Source: a virus (Duplodnaviria; Heunggongvirae; Uroviricota; Caudoviricetes). Taken from it: a stretch of DNA of 27,886 nucleotides. Position 1 is the first letter of the stretch, and each line of letters starts with the position of its first letter. This document shows positions 8,749 through 15,519 of the stretch, one piece after another. The stretch covers positions 64,001-91,886 of the IMG/VR virus record IMGVR_UViG_3300038443_000233. One strand, given 5' to 3'. The notes under the pieces were generated by a model that saw only the letters and a program-made list of their open reading frames with translations, made no database searches and had not been told where the DNA came from. Both the position numbers and the translations under genes were made by a program.

Positions 8749-8976
8749 TTATTTCTTGGTTACGTCGATCTTGCTTGCGAACGGGATGCCACGGTCGTCC
8801 AGAATATCCTTCAGCTCCTTATACTTGTCGTACATGAAGTCGTCGGGCAGACCGTACAAGTCTCCGATGGTCCCCGGCGAACGCCCGAAGAAGTCAGCAA
8901 AAAGTCGCAGCTCTTCCTTCGATTCAATGGTAATCGTTACCGGGATGAACACCGTTTTCTCGCACGCGACCTTCAT
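8749..8976 (-). CDS. Hypothetical protein
   Basis: 75 aa; ATGA overlap with the upstream gene. Confidence 0.65.
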   Translation of the reverse strand: MKVACEKTVFIPVTITIESKEELRLFADFFGRSPGTIGDLYGLPDDFMYDKYKELKDILDDRGIPFASKIDVTKK

Positions 8977-9254
8977 TGGAACACCGCCTTCATCTTGGCA
9001 GCGATGTTGGTTGCCTTCAGCGACTCGGCTTCAGCGGCCAGCTTGGCAGCAGTACGTGCTTCGATTTCACGAGCATGCGCCACGGCGATGCCAGCGTGTT
9101 GAACAGCTACTTGTTCCAGATCGGCCACGGCAGCGTTGAACGCCATCAGGACGTTATCGACATTGCGAACCTCGTCCTTGATCTTCAGGATGCGACGGAC
9201 GAGCGGGATGCTCAGGAATTTGGCACGAATGTATTGGTATTGATACGTAAACAT
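8973..9254 (-). CDS. Hypothetical alanine-rich helical protein
   Basis: 93 aa; strong GAAAGGAG RBS. Confidence 0.7.
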   Translation of the reverse strand: MFTYQYQYIRAKFLSIPLVRRILKIKDEVRNVDNVLMAFNAAVADLEQVAVQHAGIAVAHAREIEARTAAKLAAEAESLKATNIAAKMKAVFQ

Positions 9255-9291
9255 TTGATTCTCCTTTCAGGTTAGTTGGTAGTGCTACATA

Positions 9292-9450
9292 TTACAGGGC
9301 GCCTAGGATTGCGCCCAATGGTGGGAAGAAGATGCCGACGACGCGAAGAGCCAGTACCAACGTGTCGCCGCACATATTCAACAGTTTCACGATGTTCAGA
9401 ATCCAACCGACGAAGCAGATAATAGTACACATGCCTAGTATAAAGTTCAT
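9292..9450 (-). CDS. Small two-TM membrane protein (not in ORF track)
   Basis: MNFILGMCTIICFVGWILNIVKLLNMCGDTLVLALRVVGIFFPPLGAILGAL, 52 aa, AAGGAG RBS. Confidence 0.75.
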   Translation of the reverse strand: MNFILGMCTIICFVGWILNIVKLLNMCGDTLVLALRVVGIFFPPLGAILGAL

Positions 9451-9461
9451 TGTATTACTCC

Positions 9462-9557
9462 TTATTCAATAGTTTTGCCACGGAACATTTCGTCACCTTT
9501 CGGATGTGGCTTATCCTCAAGTAACAGCTTCTTTAGCCAAGTCAGGAAGCGTTTCAT
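9462..9557 (-). CDS. 31-aa microprotein (not in ORF track)
   Basis: MKRFLTWLKKLLLEDKPHPKGDEMFRGKTIE; ATGA-coupled to the macrodomain stop and fills the gap exactly. Confidence 0.55.
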   Translation of the reverse strand: MKRFLTWLKKLLLEDKPHPKGDEMFRGKTIE

Positions 9558-10027
9558 TCTTGCACGTACAGCGTTGCATCGACATCATGGAAGACAGCTT
9601 GGAAGATAGCCGTCAGACGCTTTACGTCACCGCCACCCAGACCGCCACCGATCATCGGAAGGATGACTGGAGCGTTGTTACGAATAGCGAAATCACGCAC
9701 CTTCAGCATTGAATCTACGACAGCATCGTAGCTCATGTACAGCATGCCATCCCGGCCGTAGTTCTCTTGCGTGATAGCGTTCGCTACTATGACGCTGCTT
9801 TCTGGGTTCTTAGCGAGCACTACGTCGCCTAGCACGAGGCCGAAGTCGGTGTATTCATTGCGATAGGATTCGAAAGCGTACGGGTAGAGCTTCTTGACCA
9901 AAGCAGCCACACCGGAGCCCATGACGCCTTGGGCATTGCAGCCATGGACGAGGATGACTGGTTTGTTTGCTTCTTTCTTTTCGAGTGCTGCGTTGAACAG
10001 GTCGCCGGATTCGATTTTCAGTGCCAT
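9554..10027 (-). CDS. Stand-alone macrodomain protein (T4 Tk.4/TARG1/DarG-like ADP-ribose-processing family)
   Basis: SGDLF, HGCNAQGVMGSGVA, NAITQ and LPMIGGGLGGGD macrodomain loops. Confidence 0.88.
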   Translation of the reverse strand: MALKIESGDLFNAALEKKEANKPVILVHGCNAQGVMGSGVAALVKKLYPYAFESYRNEYTDFGLVLGDVVLAKNPESSVIVANAITQENYGRDGMLYMSYDAVVDSMLKVRDFAIRNNAPVILPMIGGGLGGGDVKRLTAIFQAVFHDVDATLYVQE

Positions 10028-10078
10028 TTTATTTACTGCCTTTCGTTTAACGTTCAGGGTATTGAGTAGACAGAAAGC

Positions 10079-10107
10079 ATTGTAATACTCCCTATCTACC
10101 CTGTCAA
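10079..10107 (-). promoter_or_regulatory. Sigma70-like promoter embedded in an 18-bp inverted repeat
   Basis: TTGACA (10102-10107), 17 nt, TACAAT (10079-10084); stem spans 10064-10101. Confidence 0.8.
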
Positions 10108-10114
10108 GAGCTAA

Positions 10115-11488
10115 TTACGCAACGTAGAAGCGCTTACCCTTGGCGAAGTTCGGACCTTGGTCGTACTGCTTCTTACCAGTGATTTTCGCAGCAGCACGTG
10201 CTTCATCGCGGGTAGTATAGAACTGCACACCAGCTCCTGCTAAATGGTAACGCACGCGACCGTCGAAACCTGCGTGCTTGAGCGGCAGCGGAACGGACTG
10301 GGCAACCGGAGCCTGTACGGCAGGAGCGGCAACCTTCGGAGTCGGCTTCAGCGGCGAAGGCGTCGGCTTGTTCGTCACCGGGACAGCAGGTAGTTGCACG
10401 ACAGCCGGAGCAGCAGGCTTCGGTGCAGCCGGTGCAGTGTAGCGGTCGATTTCTTCTTGGGTGAACGGCACGCCGATTTCTTCCCAATAGAGTACTCCCG
10501 TACTCGCTACCAGCTTACGGTTCACCGACTCCGACTGGATGAACAGATCGTAGTTACCATGATCCCCCGGATGCAGGCGGATGTTGTTCACCGCGGACAG
10601 GCCCAGCATGTCACGAGCTTCCTTACCAGCGAACACCTTGCCGTTCGAACGGTCACGGATCGCGATCATCTTCGACGGCGAGACACGTGCTTCAGTCTTC
10701 GTCAGTTGATAGAACGCCGAACCCTTCAGGTACTTCATGCGCTTCGTGAGGATGAAGTCACGAATCTGAATGCCATTCTGCCACGGTTCCACCACGTACA
10801 GGCTGACGGCCTTGCTGATGTCCTTCAGCTTCGACGTATCGACGTTCTGTGCGTTGGCGTAGAACACCGTCGTGGAAGTCTTACCAGCCGAGCGGGCAGC
10901 AAAGTAGCCGTCCATTGCAGCGGCCGTCTGGGTAGTCGATGCAGCCATACCAGCTTTCGAGGTTTCCCATTCTTGCACGTTGTCCAGCGGGATGCCCAGA
11001 TTCGACACGGAGCTGCGATTACCTTTCGGGACGCGCATCACGAACGTCCAGCGGCCCGTGCGTTGCAGTTGTTCGATCTTGGTACGGAGCGATTCTGCCG
11101 TGTACTTGGTCGAGTGGGCTTCTTCGCCATCCGTCGTAGCCATCACGAGGAACGAGACGTGCTGTTCATTGGCATCCGGCAGCGATTCGAACAGTTCGAT
11201 CATGTTGCCGATACCGTCGTACAGAGGCGTACCGCCCGGAGTCGGCCAGCTTGCCACCGGCTTCAGGACGTGCGGATTCGAGATGACGATCTGGCGAGTC
11301 GTTCCGTAGCCGCTGTTGCCGATGCCGATTGCGACGACGGACACGATGGTATCCTGCATCTCGCGGCTTGCTGCGTCTTTCACAGCAGTGATGGTAGCGT
11401 TGTAGTCGCTCTTAGCTGCTTCAGCGAGACGACCCATGGAGCCCGAGTGGTCGTTGACGAAGCCGATGTAGTTTTTCGATTGTGCCAT
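10115..11488 (-). CDS. vWA (MIDAS) domain protein with an unknown middle domain, Pro/Ala linker and small basic C-terminal domain
   Basis: GFVNDHSGSM (DxSxS), GGTPLYD (T) and ATTDGEE (D) form a complete MIDAS; linker APAAPKPAAP...; strong AAGGAG RBS. Confidence 0.85.
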   Translation of the reverse strand: MAQSKNYIGFVNDHSGSMGRLAEAAKSDYNATITAVKDAASREMQDTIVSVVAIGIGNSGYGTTRQIVISNPHVLKPVASWPTPGGTPLYDGIGNMIELFESLPDANEQHVSFLVMATTDGEEAHSTKYTAESLRTKIEQLQRTGRWTFVMRVPKGNRSSVSNLGIPLDNVQEWETSKAGMAASTTQTAAAMDGYFAARSAGKTSTTVFYANAQNVDTSKLKDISKAVSLYVVEPWQNGIQIRDFILTKRMKYLKGSAFYQLTKTEARVSPSKMIAIRDRSNGKVFAGKEARDMLGLSAVNNIRLHPGDHGNYDLFIQSESVNRKLVASTGVLYWEEIGVPFTQEEIDRYTAPAAPKPAAPAVVQLPAVPVTNKPTPSPLKPTPKVAAPAVQAPVAQSVPLPLKHAGFDGRVRYHLAGAGVQFYTTRDEARAAAKITGKKQYDQGPNFAKGKRFYVA

Positions 11489-11503
11489 TGTTATTTCTCC
11501 TTG

Positions 11504-11761
11504 TTAGTTGATAGTGGTACTACGATTAAGTTCTGCGGTCTTGTACACGTTACGAATCAATGCGCAACGCTTGTCGGTGTATTGGAGGTAGAATTGATTA
11601 CCAGCGTACTCTCCAGACATCAGGGTAGCCTTGATTGTGTTTTCACCGATTACCTCTTCTACCTCGTACACTTCCAACACGGCGGAGCCATCTCTGTCTC
11701 CGTCCGCGAACACGACAACATCACCAGTATATAGAGGATTACCAAAGATGTCTAGTGTCAT
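11504..11761 (-). CDS. Hypothetical SH3/KOW-like small protein
   Basis: 85 aa, DIFGNPLYTGDVVVF motif; similar to the C-terminal half of 17042-17416. Confidence 0.65.
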   Translation of the reverse strand: MTLDIFGNPLYTGDVVVFADGDRDGSAVLEVYEVEEVIGENTIKATLMSGEYAGNQFYLQYTDKRCALIRNVYKTAELNRSTTIN

Positions 11762-11773
11762 AGTGCTTCTTTC

Positions 11774-13342
11774 TTATTGCTTCAAACGTTCCACGATGGT
11801 AGCGAACGATTTGTCACGAAGCAGGAAGCCGTCAACGAAGACAGTTTCCAGTGCACCCTCACGCTCTTCTGCGATAGACTGCTTGTCATACAGGACGAAC
11901 TTGTCGCCTTCCTTCTCGACACGCAGCAGGCCCGTTGCTGACTTCTTCATACCGTCGCCGGTAGCCGGGTCTTTCTGAATGTCCAGAGACTTGCCATACA
12001 CAACGCCCCACGTGGCCTTGACAGCCATGCCGAACGTATCACGGGTGATGTACTGGTACGTAAAGCTACCAACACCGAACACGATGTTACCGGCACTGAA
12101 GCCTTTGTCCATTAGGCGTTGCAGAATTTGTTCTGCACGTTGCAACGTAATGCTATCACCGTAGATAAGTCCGACGCGTTGGTTCAGGGTTTTGTAACCC
12201 TTGGCCGTCGTGTCGCCACCGAAGATATCCCAGAGGCATTCAACAGCGCCCTTGATTTCTGCTTCAGTCAGCAGCTTGCCAGTTTCCTTGCAAGTGTAGC
12301 CGACAACCTTACCATCAGCAGCCAATTCCAGAAGCTCGTCGTCCTTGTAGCCAGTAATGATCTTCACCGGATCACCGGAGTCCGGACGGAACACTACCTT
12401 GGCTTGGCCCAGAGCGTTCACTTTGCGAGCCAGAATTTCTTCCTTCAGCTCACGAGCGTACACAGTGATGACACGCCAGAAGTCCCACGTGTCCGACACG
12501 ATGGAGACGATACCGCTCGGATACACCTTCGTGATGAGTCGGCGGAACGTAGCCAGCTCTTCTTCACCCAGCGGTCCTTGACCGCCCATGCACATTACGG
12601 AGTGCTCTGTAGCCGGGACCGAACCGGCAACCAGCTCCTTCGTCACATCAGCGTTGTAGTACTCTTCCAGATAATCGATAGCCGGAAGCGTGTCCGTACC
12701 ACGCGAGATGAATAGGTGGGCAGCACCGCCTTTAGCAGCACCATGCCAGCCGACCATACCACGCATCGAGAAATCGTGAATCTGCCAGTCAGCGAACGCC
12801 GGATCGGAACCCGTCAGCTCGACGTACTTATTCAGGATGCGACGGTATTCGTACGTAATGGTCGCTACCGTGATTTGTTGCCACAGCTCGTCCGACAGAA
12901 CCGTTTCGAGGTAGTTCGTCAGCCAGAAGAATTGCGGCAGCGTGTTACGGATCGTCAGGAATGGAACCTTGATATCCACACGCGAACCTTCCGGCAGAGC
13001 CTTGATGATGATCGGCAGATAGCCGAGGTCATGCAGGGCAGCGATGTGATCGACTCGTACCGAGTCTGGGCCGAGGAAGTTGTCGCAGCGGCGTTTGTAC
13101 TCAGCGATCACTTCGTCCTTCGGGCGCTTGAAGAAGTGTTCGTTCCATGCTTCGATCAGGAACTCTTTCACGAAACCTTGCAGACCGACGAACACTACCT
13201 TGTTGTCGTACAGGTCGCCCATCTTAGCGTGGCTGGCCGAACGTGCCGTCAGGTTGGAATACACGTACTCCGTGCCTTCCGGGTACTGATCGATGTGGCC
13301 CAGCTTGTACGAGTCGAGGATCAGGTGCGGTTTTACTTTCAT
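11774..13342 (-). CDS. nadV: NAMPT-family phosphoribosyltransferase, probably Namat of NARP1
   Basis: Real start ATG 13342 (AAGGAG RBS), 522 aa. Motifs DSYKLGH, YSNLTAR, HDFSMRG, SVPATEHSVM, SIVSDTWD, FRPDSGDP, GLIYGDSI, VFGVGS, TRDTFGMAVKAT. Confidence 0.95.
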   Translation of the reverse strand: MKVKPHLILDSYKLGHIDQYPEGTEYVYSNLTARSASHAKMGDLYDNKVVFVGLQGFVKEFLIEAWNEHFFKRPKDEVIAEYKRRCDNFLGPDSVRVDHIAALHDLGYLPIIIKALPEGSRVDIKVPFLTIRNTLPQFFWLTNYLETVLSDELWQQITVATITYEYRRILNKYVELTGSDPAFADWQIHDFSMRGMVGWHGAAKGGAAHLFISRGTDTLPAIDYLEEYYNADVTKELVAGSVPATEHSVMCMGGQGPLGEEELATFRRLITKVYPSGIVSIVSDTWDFWRVITVYARELKEEILARKVNALGQAKVVFRPDSGDPVKIITGYKDDELLELAADGKVVGYTCKETGKLLTEAEIKGAVECLWDIFGGDTTAKGYKTLNQRVGLIYGDSITLQRAEQILQRLMDKGFSAGNIVFGVGSFTYQYITRDTFGMAVKATWGVVYGKSLDIQKDPATGDGMKKSATGLLRVEKEGDKFVLYDKQSIAEEREGALETVFVDGFLLRDKSFATIVERLKQ

Positions 13343-13356
13343 TGTTGTTCTCCTTG

Positions 13357-13587
13357 TTAGTCGATGATTACCAGCTTGCCATCGCTGTCGAGCGGGAGGT
13401 CCAAAGACCTGTCGATCCATTTGTGCAGTTTGACGCCGTTTTCCGTGATGTCCAGCAGGTGTCCAGCAGACCACGGCGTACCGGAATCATCCACGACGAC
13501 AACGGATACGGCTTTACCCTTCGGTACGAGCTTAACCTTCAGAGTCTTCTCGACTGGGGTGGCTTGTTTGAACTCTTCGATTTTCAT
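13357..13587 (-). CDS. Hypothetical protein
   Basis: Start ATG 13587 with AAGGAG RBS (MKIEEF...), 76 aa. Confidence 0.7.
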   Translation of the reverse strand: MKIEEFKQATPVEKTLKVKLVPKGKAVSVVVVDDSGTPWSAGHLLDITENGVKLHKWIDRSLDLPLDSDGKLVIID

Positions 13588-13610
13588 TATTTTCTCCTTG
13601 GTTGTGTTGG

Positions 13611-13826
13611 TTAGGCTACGATCTTGGTCCACTTAGCAGTACCAGTCTCCGGATCGCAAGCGTAGTTGGCATCGCCCACATCGTCGTACACGAAGAATTC
13701 TCCGTTGCCTTCTTCGACTTTGTAAATCTTGCCGAATGTCAGATCATGGATGTCCGGGTTGTTACGGTTCGTTTTGCTGTCATGGAAGACCACCTTATCA
13801 CCGCTTTCCAGTTTCTTCTTTGCCAT
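13611..13826 (-). CDS. Hypothetical small beta-rich protein
   Basis: 71 aa, AAGGAG RBS; DLTFGKIY...DDVGDANY is similar to the N-terminal half of 17042-17416. Confidence 0.7.
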   Translation of the reverse strand: MAKKKLESGDKVVFHDSKTNRNNPDIHDLTFGKIYKVEEGNGEFFVYDDVGDANYACDPETGTAKWTKIVA

Positions 13827-13849
13827 TTTACTCTCCTTGGTAGTGGTTC

Positions 13850-14674
13850 TTACAGTTTGATTACTTTGCCGGATGCGATTGCGTCTTTCGCTTTCTGCCC
13901 GACAGGATTAGCAGTGTACACAACATCGATCAGGTTGTCAAACACTTCAGGACCAGCACTGAAGATACCGTGCGTTACGTACAGCATGATCTTTCCATCG
14001 GTGTACGGGCGCAGCACTTTCGCCAGTTCCGTGAACGTACGCCCACCGTCGCAGATGTCATCCACGATCAGGAAGTCGTGGTCACTATCATGATTGTGCC
14101 CTTCCGTGCTGATACGCGTCTCCAGAATCTTGCCGGTGGAGAGTTCCCGGACCTTTTCAGCTTGAATCAGGCCAGCGAACCCGCCCTCTTGAGCAAACTT
14201 GCGAGCCTTCTTCGAAGCGCCAGCGTCAGGAGCAACGATGACAGTGTTACCAGCGTTCACAGCACGGGCAACGCGGCTTGCTGCGAAGTCTTGCGTGAAA
14301 ACGTCAACGTTGTCTAACAGTGCCGGGGTCACATCCGAGTGCGGGTCCACGACGCAAACACGTTCGAACTTCAGCGAATTGATGAAGTCAGCTAACACCT
14401 TGATAGACAGACTCTCCCCCGGATTGCATACACGGTCCTGACGAGCGTACGGTACGTACGGCATGAATAATTTCAGCTTGACGCCGGGAAGATCACGGCG
14501 GATGGCGTCCGCCAGCAGTGCCAGATCGAACAGGTCGGAGTTCGACTCAAATGCGAGGTTCAGTGTGACATCATCTTCGAGCCACACCGGGGTCTTCACA
14601 CGAATGCAGCTTTCGCCAGCAGGGAACGTGGTCTTGGTAAGGGCGCTATCGTAGCCAACGATACTTACGCTCAT
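13850..14674 (-). CDS. prs: PRPP-synthetase-like pyrophosphokinase, probably Adps of NARP1
   Basis: Real start ATG 14674 (GGGAG RBS), 274 aa. Motifs FPAGE, MPYVPYARQDR, DPHSD, APDAGA, KVRELSTG, IVDDICDGGRTF, YVTHGIFS. Confidence 0.93.
   Translation of the reverse strand: MSVSIVGYDSALTKTTFPAGESCIRVKTPVWLEDDVTLNLAFESNSDLFDLALLADAIRRDLPGVKLKLFMPYVPYARQDRVCNPGESLSIKVLADFINSLKFERVCVVDPHSDVTPALLDNVDVFTQDFAASRVARAVNAGNTVIVAPDAGASKKARKFAQEGGFAGLIQAEKVRELSTGKILETRISTEGHNHDSDHDFLIVDDICDGGRTFTELAKVLRPYTDGKIMLYVTHGIFSAGPEVFDNLIDVVYTANPVGQKAKDAIASGKVIKL
13913..13941 (-). promoter_or_regulatory. Possible internal sigma70 promoter in the 3' end of the prs-like gene, upstream of the NAMPT-like gene
   Basis: TTGACA (13936-13941), 17 nt, TACACT (13913-13918). 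It lies in coding sequence, so it could be chance. Confidence 0.4.
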
Positions 14675-14675
14675 C

Positions 14676-14885
14676 TTACACTCCCGCACGCAGCGAGCGA
14701 ACGAACGACAAACCGGGGATGGTAGTGTAACCGTCGAATACGTCACGCACGCCTTTCACATCCGCATATTTTCCAGCACGGATGCAGGAACGGGTTACGC
14801 CGGTCTTATTGTCCCAGCGGTAGTTAGGGTTCAGGCACCAGCCCGGAATGAATTTACCTTCACGTTGGTTACGGCTCTTGCTCAT
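14676..14885 (-). CDS. Hypothetical basic protein
   Basis: 69 aa, AAGGAG RBS. Confidence 0.7.
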   Translation of the reverse strand: MSKSRNQREGKFIPGWCLNPNYRWDNKTGVTRSCIRAGKYADVKGVRDVFDGYTTIPGLSFVRSLRAGV

Positions 14886-15030
14886 GTTCTTCTCCTTGGT
14901 TGTAGTCCGAGTATGGACAGGTCTTTGGTCCGGGGCATGTACCCCATTTTACGTCGCATTGGCAACGTTCACTACGACCTTTCTTACGTTCCAACTTCAG
15001 TTCGTAGATGTCGTCGTTGAATGCATCCAT
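14869..15030 (-). CDS. Cys-rich microprotein (not in ORF track)
   Basis: MDAFNDDIYELKLERKKGRSERCQCDVKWGTCPGPKTCPYSDYNQGEEHEQEP, 53 aa; starts 3 nt after the SLOG stop. Confidence 0.6.
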   Translation of the reverse strand: MDAFNDDIYELKLERKKGRSERCQCDVKWGTCPGPKTCPYSDYNQGEEHEQEP

Positions 15031-15033
15031 TAT

Positions 15034-15519
15034 CTACAACTTCTTTCGTACCGTCAAGCTATTTGGGAAAATAATTTCGCACTTGTCTTGCAGCCGGTCG
15101 AGTGCATCAGCGTCAATACGCAACGGGAACAAGTAAGCAGGCTTGTCCAGAGCGATCATACGGTGCAGCATATCAAGCGAGCCAGTGCTACGACCGTCCC
15201 ACACGATCAAAGCGGCATCTGCCATCTGAGCCATCTCTTCGTTGCGCCAGTGACCCGCCAGAGCGTTGTACGGCCCACGGCTGTTATGACGAACGACGGC
15301 TCCACGAGCCTTGATATTGCTCCAGTCAGCGGGCTTCTTGTGCAGCTTGAGCCCCGCCTTCTCAGCGAAGATTTCCCCGTGCTTATCCGGGCCTTCAGCT
15401 TCCCCGGAAATCACCGCGATCTTCTTGCCGTATGTCGTCCACAGGCCACTTTCGATGATGGCTTGACGCGTGACGTTGTAATCCCGGATGGACCGGGAAC
15501 CAGCTATGACGAGCTTCAT
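15034..15519 (-). CDS. SLOG-superfamily protein (DUF2493/YspA-like)
   Basis: KLVIAGSR, VISGEAEGPD, PADW, AGHWRNEEMA, WDGRSTGSLDM. Confidence 0.85.
   Translation of the reverse strand: MKLVIAGSRSIRDYNVTRQAIIESGLWTTYGKKIAVISGEAEGPDKHGEIFAEKAGLKLHKKPADWSNIKARGAVVRHNSRGPYNALAGHWRNEEMAQMADAALIVWDGRSTGSLDMLHRMIALDKPAYLFPLRIDADALDRLQDKCEIIFPNSLTVRKKL

Follow-up and report, generated by a model that had tools for sequence, protein, structure and literature searches.

A NARP1 locus with a probable Adpp-type macrodomain, beside SLOG and vWA genes, in a divergent lineage of uncultivated phages

The stretch of phage DNA analyzed here, which we call the window, comprises 27,886 nucleotides, the final 27.9 kb of a genome that is complete at 91,886 bp and bears direct terminal repeats (IMG/VR record IMGVR_UViG_3300038443_000233). 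On its minus strand, from 15519 to 9554, lie ten closely spaced open reading frames (ORFs), which encode, in the order of transcription, a SLOG protein, two proteins of 53 and 69 amino acids, a PRPS-like protein (Adps), two proteins of 71 and 76 amino acids, a NAMPT-like protein (Namat), a protein of 85 amino acids, a vWA protein and a stand-alone macrodomain (Macro). An earlier reading of the same DNA (hereafter, the original prediction) had listed these ten genes and named five domains among them, namely SLOG, PRPS-like, NAMPT-like, vWA and Macro; all are present where it placed them, and the PRPS-like, NAMPT-like and Macro calls are backed by Pfam, PHROGs and NCBIfam together. The order SLOG-Adps-Namat-vWA-Macro is maintained in nine related IMG/VR phages, which we refer to as the lineage. 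The original prediction saw in this arrangement an island for handling NAD+ and ADP-ribose (ADPR), bracketed by SLOG and Macro. The bracket is arbitrary: an ORF of 135 amino acids on the same strand abuts the SLOG start, and five further small ORFs follow Macro, so that SLOG and Macro delimit nothing in a string of genes that runs beyond both. Direct observation covers which genes are present, their motifs, the conservation of catalytic residues and the statistics of co-occurrence, and on balance we favor reading the stretch as one functional module accompanied by two unrelated neighbors, SLOG and vWA.

The core of the locus is NARP1, the known two-enzyme pathway that rebuilds NAD+ by means of Adps and Namat (Osterman et al., bioRxiv 10.1101/2024.02.11.579819; structures in PMC12774641 and PMC13586617), and the activities given here are those predicted from homology. 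The gene for Adps, a putative PRPS-like ADP-ribose diphosphokinase, occupies 13850-14674 on the minus strand, and from its likely true start, an ATG at 14674, encodes 274 amino acids. The protein matches phrog_619 (7.5e-82) and TIGR01251 (123 bits) and is 35% identical to the Adps of Vibrio phage Gary. Namat, a putative NAMPT-like nicotinamide ADP-ribose transferase of 522 amino acids, is encoded at 11774-13342 on the minus strand, with its likely true start at ATG 13342. It matches PF04095 (4.7e-34) and phrog_448 (8.9e-196), and its closest PDB entries are 9w5x and 9w5w (E 7e-151), as against about 1e-55 for human NAMPT. K174 of Adps aligns with K192 of the Gary protein and H247 of Namat with Gary H243, which are residues mutated in a later study of an extended NARP1 (bioRxiv 10.64898/2026.01.28.702374). 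Namat can be told from Nampt by a selectivity-clamp helix (SCH), GSX-phi-X-phi-X-phi-TRD with aromatic residues at X (PMC12774641), and residues 425-435 of the window Namat read GSFTYQYITRD, matching that consensus. For contrast, the canonical Nampt of another phage (G001) reads GMGGGLLQKCDRD at the clamp position.

The two genes lie on the same strand and are separated by 507 nucleotides holding two small ORFs. Gene neighborhoods were compared in samples of 72-80 IMG/VR loci per anchor gene, with statistics that ignore phylogeny. Adps adjoins Namat in 70 of 72 Namat-anchored loci outside the lineage, and the complete 91,886-bp genome contains neither an NMNAT (PF01467) nor a NUDIX (PF00293) gene, nor genes for NADAR or RyR. 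We suggest that Adps would convert ADPR and ATP to ADPR-pyrophosphate, which Namat would join to nicotinamide to give NAD+, and that NAD+ rebuilt in this way would counter host defenses that deplete it. One record of a relative, only 18 kb long (L177, IMGVR_UViG_3300037193_000791) carries Adps, vWA and Macro at about 8905-11700 with no Namat between them, and may represent a deletion variant of the cassette. The top "phage" match to the NAMPT-like protein (56%), from "Acinetobacter phage MD-2021a" (L002, CAKLQF020000015.1), was left unused: it looks bacterial, with prsA-nadV-nadM flanked by ABC transporters, an AraC regulator and efflux genes, and resembles a fragment of a bacterial chromosome.

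The helper that we would add to this core is Macro, a protein of 157 amino acids encoded at 9554-10027 on the minus strand. A route by which a macrodomain feeds NARP1 has already been published: Adpp, a Macro protein found in 15% of NARP1 operons, turns ADPR-1''-phosphate (ADPR-1''-P), the product of the aRES NADase, into ADPR, after which NARP1 overcomes aRES; the extended pathway was named NARP1-AP, and the H24A mutant of Gary Adpp loses function (Osterman et al. 2026, bioRxiv 10.64898/2026.01.28.702374). The window Macro matches PF01661 at 23.5 bits, against a cut-off of 22, and phrog_335 at 6.7e-39. phrog_335 is also the top match for the validated Gary Adpp and for the NARP1-adjacent macrodomain of Barba19A. 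With Gary Adpp it shares 26% identity (pairwise E 8e-9), and its H28, in an HGCN motif that is invariant across NARP1-associated macrodomains, aligns with the catalytic H24. In a tree, the macrodomains of the lineage are sister, with moderate support (82/72), to that of two loci (L093/L094), which is their nearest relative outside the lineage and, like the Gary gene, is flanked by Adps and Namat. Namat has a Macro gene within 10 kb in 10 of 72 loci (14%, in line with the published 15%) and SLOG has one in 1 of 71 (Fisher p = 0.009), and an Adpp-type macrodomain occurs somewhere in the record in 13 of 50 NARP1-positive records and in 8 of the 20 complete ones. We conclude that Macro is probably an Adpp-type ADPR-1''-phosphate phosphatase serving NARP1. 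It would strip the 1''-phosphate from ADPR-1''-P, as produced by RES-type (aRES) NADases, and hand the resulting ADPR to Adps.

The position of Macro departs from that of published examples. It is the third gene downstream of Namat, beyond the 85-amino-acid ORF and vWA and some 1.75 kb from the Namat stop, and it falls just outside the limit of two genes from Adps or Namat within which the NARP1-AP paper counted macrodomains; this limit is a search criterion and no functional definition. A promoter-like site, TTGACA-17-TACAAT, lies at 10079-10107 on the minus strand, within the 87-bp gap upstream of Macro. It agrees with the consensus at 11 of 12 positions and is, as a consensus match only, the strongest sigma-70-like site in the 9.3 kb scanned; further promoter-like sites are found at 16793-16764 and 17477-17449. 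Because Macro stands third after Namat with its own promoter-like site, the locus would be a dispersed form of NARP1-AP, and we think this somewhat better than an even bet.

The main rival to a dispersed NARP1-AP is an anti-DarT role, in which Macro would be an orphan glycohydrolase resembling DarG or TARG1 that removes ADP-ribose from DarT-modified phage DNA, under its own promoter and independently of NARP1. Macro is similar to the DarG macrodomain of Mycobacterium tuberculosis (5m3i, 8e-7) and to SCO6735 (2e-6), and its sole NCBIfam match is antitoxin_DarG; that match, however, scores 30.7 bits against a cut-off of 250. Moreover, Gary Adpp resembles TARG1, SCO6735 and DarG just as much. Since a validated Adpp shows the same likeness, it appears to be a trait of the family that does not discriminate between the two roles, and the catalytic histidine, common to Adpp and to DarG/TARG1, does not separate them at the level of residues either. 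The independence that this role implies would fit the promoter-like site directly upstream, and the phrog_335 macrodomains of Felix O1 and of Bacillus phages are encoded far from NARP1. Yet the nearest macrodomain outside the lineage has Adps on one side and Namat on the other, and the place of Macro after Namat and vWA is kept in two lineages, our own and a sister lineage. Among the scanned neighbors of Macro, no DarT-like gene was found. We therefore regard an anti-DarT function as possible but unlikely.

A third role for Macro would be to clear ADPR-1''-P or ADPR-1'',2''-cyclic phosphate (Appr>p) left by phage RNA repair through 2'-phosphotransferase chemistry, its closeness to NARP1 being incidental. 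Poa1p, the closest characterized homologue according to the NARP1-AP study (bioRxiv 10.64898/2026.01.28.702374), acts in tRNA splicing; the Felix O1 macrodomain is encoded near a polynucleotide kinase, RNA ligases lie near NARP1-AP in Gary, and Iyer et al. (PMC9503650) tied viral Macro domains to regions of RNA repair. Against this, no genes for RNA ligase, Pnk or KptA were seen in the window, Macro is enriched beside Namat, and the activity of the Gary operon against aRES was abolished without Adpp (bioRxiv 10.64898/2026.01.28.702374). An RNA-repair role consequently strikes us as extremely improbable, and a probable Adpp-type phosphatase is the assignment that we retain.

The gene at the other end of the stretch, at 15034-15519 on the minus strand, encodes a SLOG-fold protein of 161 amino acids and of the DUF2493/YspA type. 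It matches phrog_289 (7.5e-20), and the Pfam family YAcAr (PF10686) at E 2e-5 and 24.8 bits, below the cut-off of 28.2; PF02481 is matched weakly. Many relatives at 55-75% identity have precomputed PF10686 and/or PF02481 matches. The family is very large, with 16,394 clusters at 50% identity in a profile search (E up to 0.001), and tblastn finds it in 443 phage records, including those of phiEco32-like, Ralstonia jumbo and Campylobacter phages. An AF2 (AlphaFold2) model, with a predicted local distance difference test score (pLDDT) of 93, has as its top structural matches a molybdenum cofactor (MoCo) carrier, DprA, LOG and ShosA, with the SLOG domain of ThsA lower. The Z scores from VIA-align were 12.2 for the MoCo carrier, 11.3 for DprA and 9.5, 9.2 and 8.7 for ThsA SLOG domains, at 10% identity. 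The motifs AGSR, SGxAxGxD, AGxxRN and WDGxSxG are invariant.

According to the original prediction, SLOG and Macro together would extend NARP1 into a larger island: SLOG would trap or cleave Thoeris signals of the cyclic ADPR (cADPR) type, Macro would remove His-ADPR or ADPR adducts, and the ADPR released would go to Adps and Namat. The premise that SLOG and Macro are sensor domains of ThsA proteins is correct, and several observations speak for such an island. The block is syntenic in nine relatives, the fold is common to the window SLOG and ThsA (Z 8.7-9.5), and Iyer et al. 2022 (PMC9503650) predict that viral SLOG proteins degrade cADPR-like signals and co-occur with Macro. There is also the precedent of RyDEP, a NARP1 neighbor that converts cADPR to ADPR. 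What the idea demands is that SLOG and NARP1 be linked in phages at large, and this we examined from both sides.

We sampled 80 SLOG-anchored viral loci, nine of them from the lineage itself (SLOG at least 55% identical) and 71 from outside it. Adps, Namat or an Adpp-type Macro was seen in the nine lineage members only; Adps or Namat was within 10 kb of SLOG in 0 of the 71 others, for an upper 95% bound of 4%. From the opposite direction, SLOG was found within 10 kb in 3 of 72 Namat loci outside the lineage, which could be counted in favor of an island; in these three, SLOG is 3.5-6.4 kb away, never adjacent, and 26-39% identical to the window protein. A single one of 49 whole SLOG-positive records has a Namat-type gene, about 18 kb from SLOG, and four have a canonical Nampt. 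As background for the 10-kb counts we used published prevalences and INPHARED counts; an NrdA anchor gave four loci, which belonged to the lineage or were fragments. Among medium and jumbo phages, 19-31% are reported to carry SLOG and 22-33% NadV (Iyer et al., PMC9503650). Our co-occurrence rates for SLOG and NARP1 do not exceed these figures, and at such prevalences proximity by chance is likely.

The sister lineage points the same way. In its complete genome, G100, Adps, Namat, vWA and Macro stay together while the SLOG homologue is about 35 kb distant. That homologue (G100:C1:21110-21408, in the record of locus L202) matches in two pieces in separate frames or ORFs, covering model positions 1-39 and 78-134, and may be a broken or shortened gene. 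The recurrent neighbors of the SLOG family are a Mre11-like phosphoesterase, a Rad50/SMC-like ATPase, the large subunit of ribonucleotide reductase (RNR), a FEN-like exonuclease, Pol III alpha, a UvsW helicase and a 3'-5' exonuclease, and the window SLOG borders a similar module, with RNR, MazG, a metallophosphoesterase and an exonuclease at 17.5-24.5 kb. Because of the linkage, sister-lineage and neighbor data together, we read the adjacency of SLOG and NARP1 as specific to one lineage, and the SLOG part of the original prediction, which depended on linkage at large, is not supported. Two further points tell against an island, namely that DprA and MoCo carriers resemble the window SLOG more closely in structure than ThsA does, and that the reaction which Iyer et al. 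propose for SLOG, in which the N-glycosidic bond to adenine is cleaved, would yield no ADPR. An island to which both SLOG and Macro belong is, in our opinion, quite unlikely. SLOG is probably a nucleotide- or single-stranded DNA-binding protein of the replication and recombination region, and not of NARP1, as judged from its relatives and neighbors. The general prediction of Iyer et al. for viral SLOG proteins is not refuted by our results; it is neither new here nor tied to NARP1. G001, which has SLOG and vWA without NARP1 or Macro, was considered as a natural experiment, and proved a weak one, having few other genes in common with the phage studied here.

The vWA gene (10115-11488, minus strand) encodes 457 amino acids in four parts: a vWA domain (1-200), a beta-rich region (225-340), a disordered Pro/Ala linker (356-397) and a small C-terminal domain. 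Motifs resembling a metal ion-dependent adhesion site (MIDAS), DHSGSM and TTDGEE, are present, and the protein has no Pfam match. Foldseek searches with its AF2 model (pLDDT 80.6) matched ANTXR2, integrin I-domains and the vWA domain of Ku80 at E of about 1e-6 to 1e-7, and vWA clusters of AFDB at up to 2e-13; some rows were Ku80 as vWA plus barrel. The family has at least 995 homologues, none with a Pfam match or annotation. The original prediction counted vWA as a member of the island, which sits badly with its distribution: about 55 of 75 vWA-anchored loci have no NARP1, SLOG or Macro within 10 kb. In Caulobacter phage Cr30 the gene lies in a replication module, between a gp59-like helicase loader and the single-stranded DNA-binding protein, in mycobacteriophage Myrna a homologue has no NAD genes nearby, and in two other loci (L017/L018) vWA is 1.5-2 kb from SLOG without NARP1. 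It does stay between Namat and Macro in two lineages, the second being the sister lineage (L202/L204). The vWA protein appears to be a backbone gene, mostly found without NARP1, and its membership of the pathway is not supported. We suggest that SLOG and vWA would both be backbone genes of the neighboring region of DNA replication, recombination and nucleotide metabolism. Opposite the vWA gene, at 10394-11734 on the plus strand, is an open frame of 446 amino acids that has tblastn matches in relatives; it is most likely the shadow of the conserved sense frame and no gene.

Of the broader pathway put forward in the original prediction, then, what survives is the addition of Macro, already published as NARP1-AP, whereas SLOG and vWA are unsupported. 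Macro itself would feed ADPR to Adps and Namat as had been foreseen, in agreement with its PHROG and the conserved histidine, but its substrate would be ADPR-1''-P and not Thoeris signals. The most inclusive version, in which Adps-Namat-(85 amino acids)-vWA-Macro, joined by SLOG in one lineage, forms a true unit of ADPR salvage, with vWA as scaffold or regulator and SLOG binding or cleaving signals of the cADPR type, we hold to be very unlikely. If it were true, a family numbering over 16,000 clusters would gain its first function, and NARP1 would have a third class of feeder besides Macro and RyR.

Several observations weigh against the arrangement that we favor, a NARP1-AP module beside two unrelated genes. 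Identity between Macro and Gary Adpp is low (26%), and the sequence of Macro is as near to DarG, TARG1 and BT1257 as to Poa1p. Its place beyond the two-gene limit and its promoter-like site count here too. Adpp-type macrodomains were only weakly enriched with NARP1 in whole records (13 of 50 NARP1-positive records versus 6 of 48; p = 0.13), and no aRES system is known for the host. As to SLOG, it adjoins NARP1 in all nine lineage relatives, and in locus L078 a SLOG gene is one gene away from a macrodomain. Lastly, co-occurrence and fusions of SLOG, Macro and NADAR have been described, with predicted processing of ADPR derivatives (Iyer et al. 2022, PMC9503650).

The L078 arrangement, at 9965-11480 of a complete 131-kb phage, consists of SLOG, one ORF and a macrodomain of a different subtype, with Asn in place of the Adpp His, and has no NARP1; it fits the SLOG-Macro neighborhoods of Iyer et al. 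2022.

The five small ORFs of the stretch, all on the minus strand, gave no Pfam or NCBIfam match even at E up to 5. The 53-amino-acid ORF (14869-15030) is found by tblastn in seven of the nine lineage relatives and nowhere else. It contains five cysteines within about 16 residues (CQC...C...C), and may, from this composition, encode a small metal-binding protein. The 69-amino-acid ORF (14676-14885), present in six of the nine, ends 1 nucleotide ahead of the Adps ATG; neither of these two matches a family in Pfam, PHROG or NCBIfam. Between Adps and Namat, the 71-amino-acid ORF (13611-13826), with a weak match to phrog_15694 and a counterpart in two of the nine relatives, is doubtful or accessory, and the 76-amino-acid ORF (13357-13587, likely true start ATG 13587; 91 amino acids if read from GTG 13632) is conserved in one of the nine and has no Pfam or NCBIfam family match. 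The 85-amino-acid protein (11504-11761) is conserved in the lineage, in seven of the nine relatives, and matches phrog_2251 weakly. That one of these ORFs might be a RyDEP was considered and dropped, there being no RyR domain anywhere in the genome. A megablast search with the 6.2-kb stretch against 50,697 phage records returned no match.

With this locus, the NARP1 family and probably that of NARP1-AP gain a divergent lineage of uncultivated phages, about 90 kb in size. The arrangement also suggests that a helper macrodomain can sit beyond the two-gene window used in counting NARP1-AP, and because Macro can lie outside that window, the published 15% may be an underestimate. The negative result for SLOG carries a lesson of its own, which is that adjacency in a single lineage is no evidence for a common pathway.

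The window SLOG has the Rossmann-like fold of the cADPR-binding SLOG domain of ThsA, from which it differs in its 10% identity, in ranking under DprA and the MoCo carrier, and in having no fused SIR2, TIR or other effector domain. Its four invariant motifs resemble those of the Rossmann domain of DprA, whose SAM and winged-helix domains it lacks. RyDEP (bioRxiv 10.64898/2026.05.28.727677) is alike in concept, as an accessory enzyme beside NARP1 that makes ADPR from an immune product, but it is a cADPR glycosidase with an RyR domain, to which the SLOG fold is unrelated. Macro, for its part, belongs to the same broad macrodomain class as DarG and TARG1, as its weak PDB and NCBIfam matches indicate, and differs from DarG in standing alone, without the C-terminal DarT-binding part.

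With NARP1 itself the locus shares the order of its genes, PRPS-like first and NAMPT-like after it on a single strand, together with the clamp motif GSXxXxXxTRD in Namat, the catalytic Lys and His of Adps and Namat, respectively, and a genome without NMNAT, a partner that instead marks NARP2. The differences are the two poorly conserved small ORFs between Adps and Namat, and a moderate identity to the enzymes studied so far (42-52% for Namat, 31-37% for Adps). With regard to NARP1-AP, Macro differs in coming third after Namat, in its promoter-like site and in its distance from Gary Adpp. It nevertheless shares PHROG 335 and the catalytic His with that protein, its gene is found in the region of NARP1 and runs in the same direction, and its nearest relative outside the lineage is found, like that of Gary, in the order Adps-Macro-Namat.

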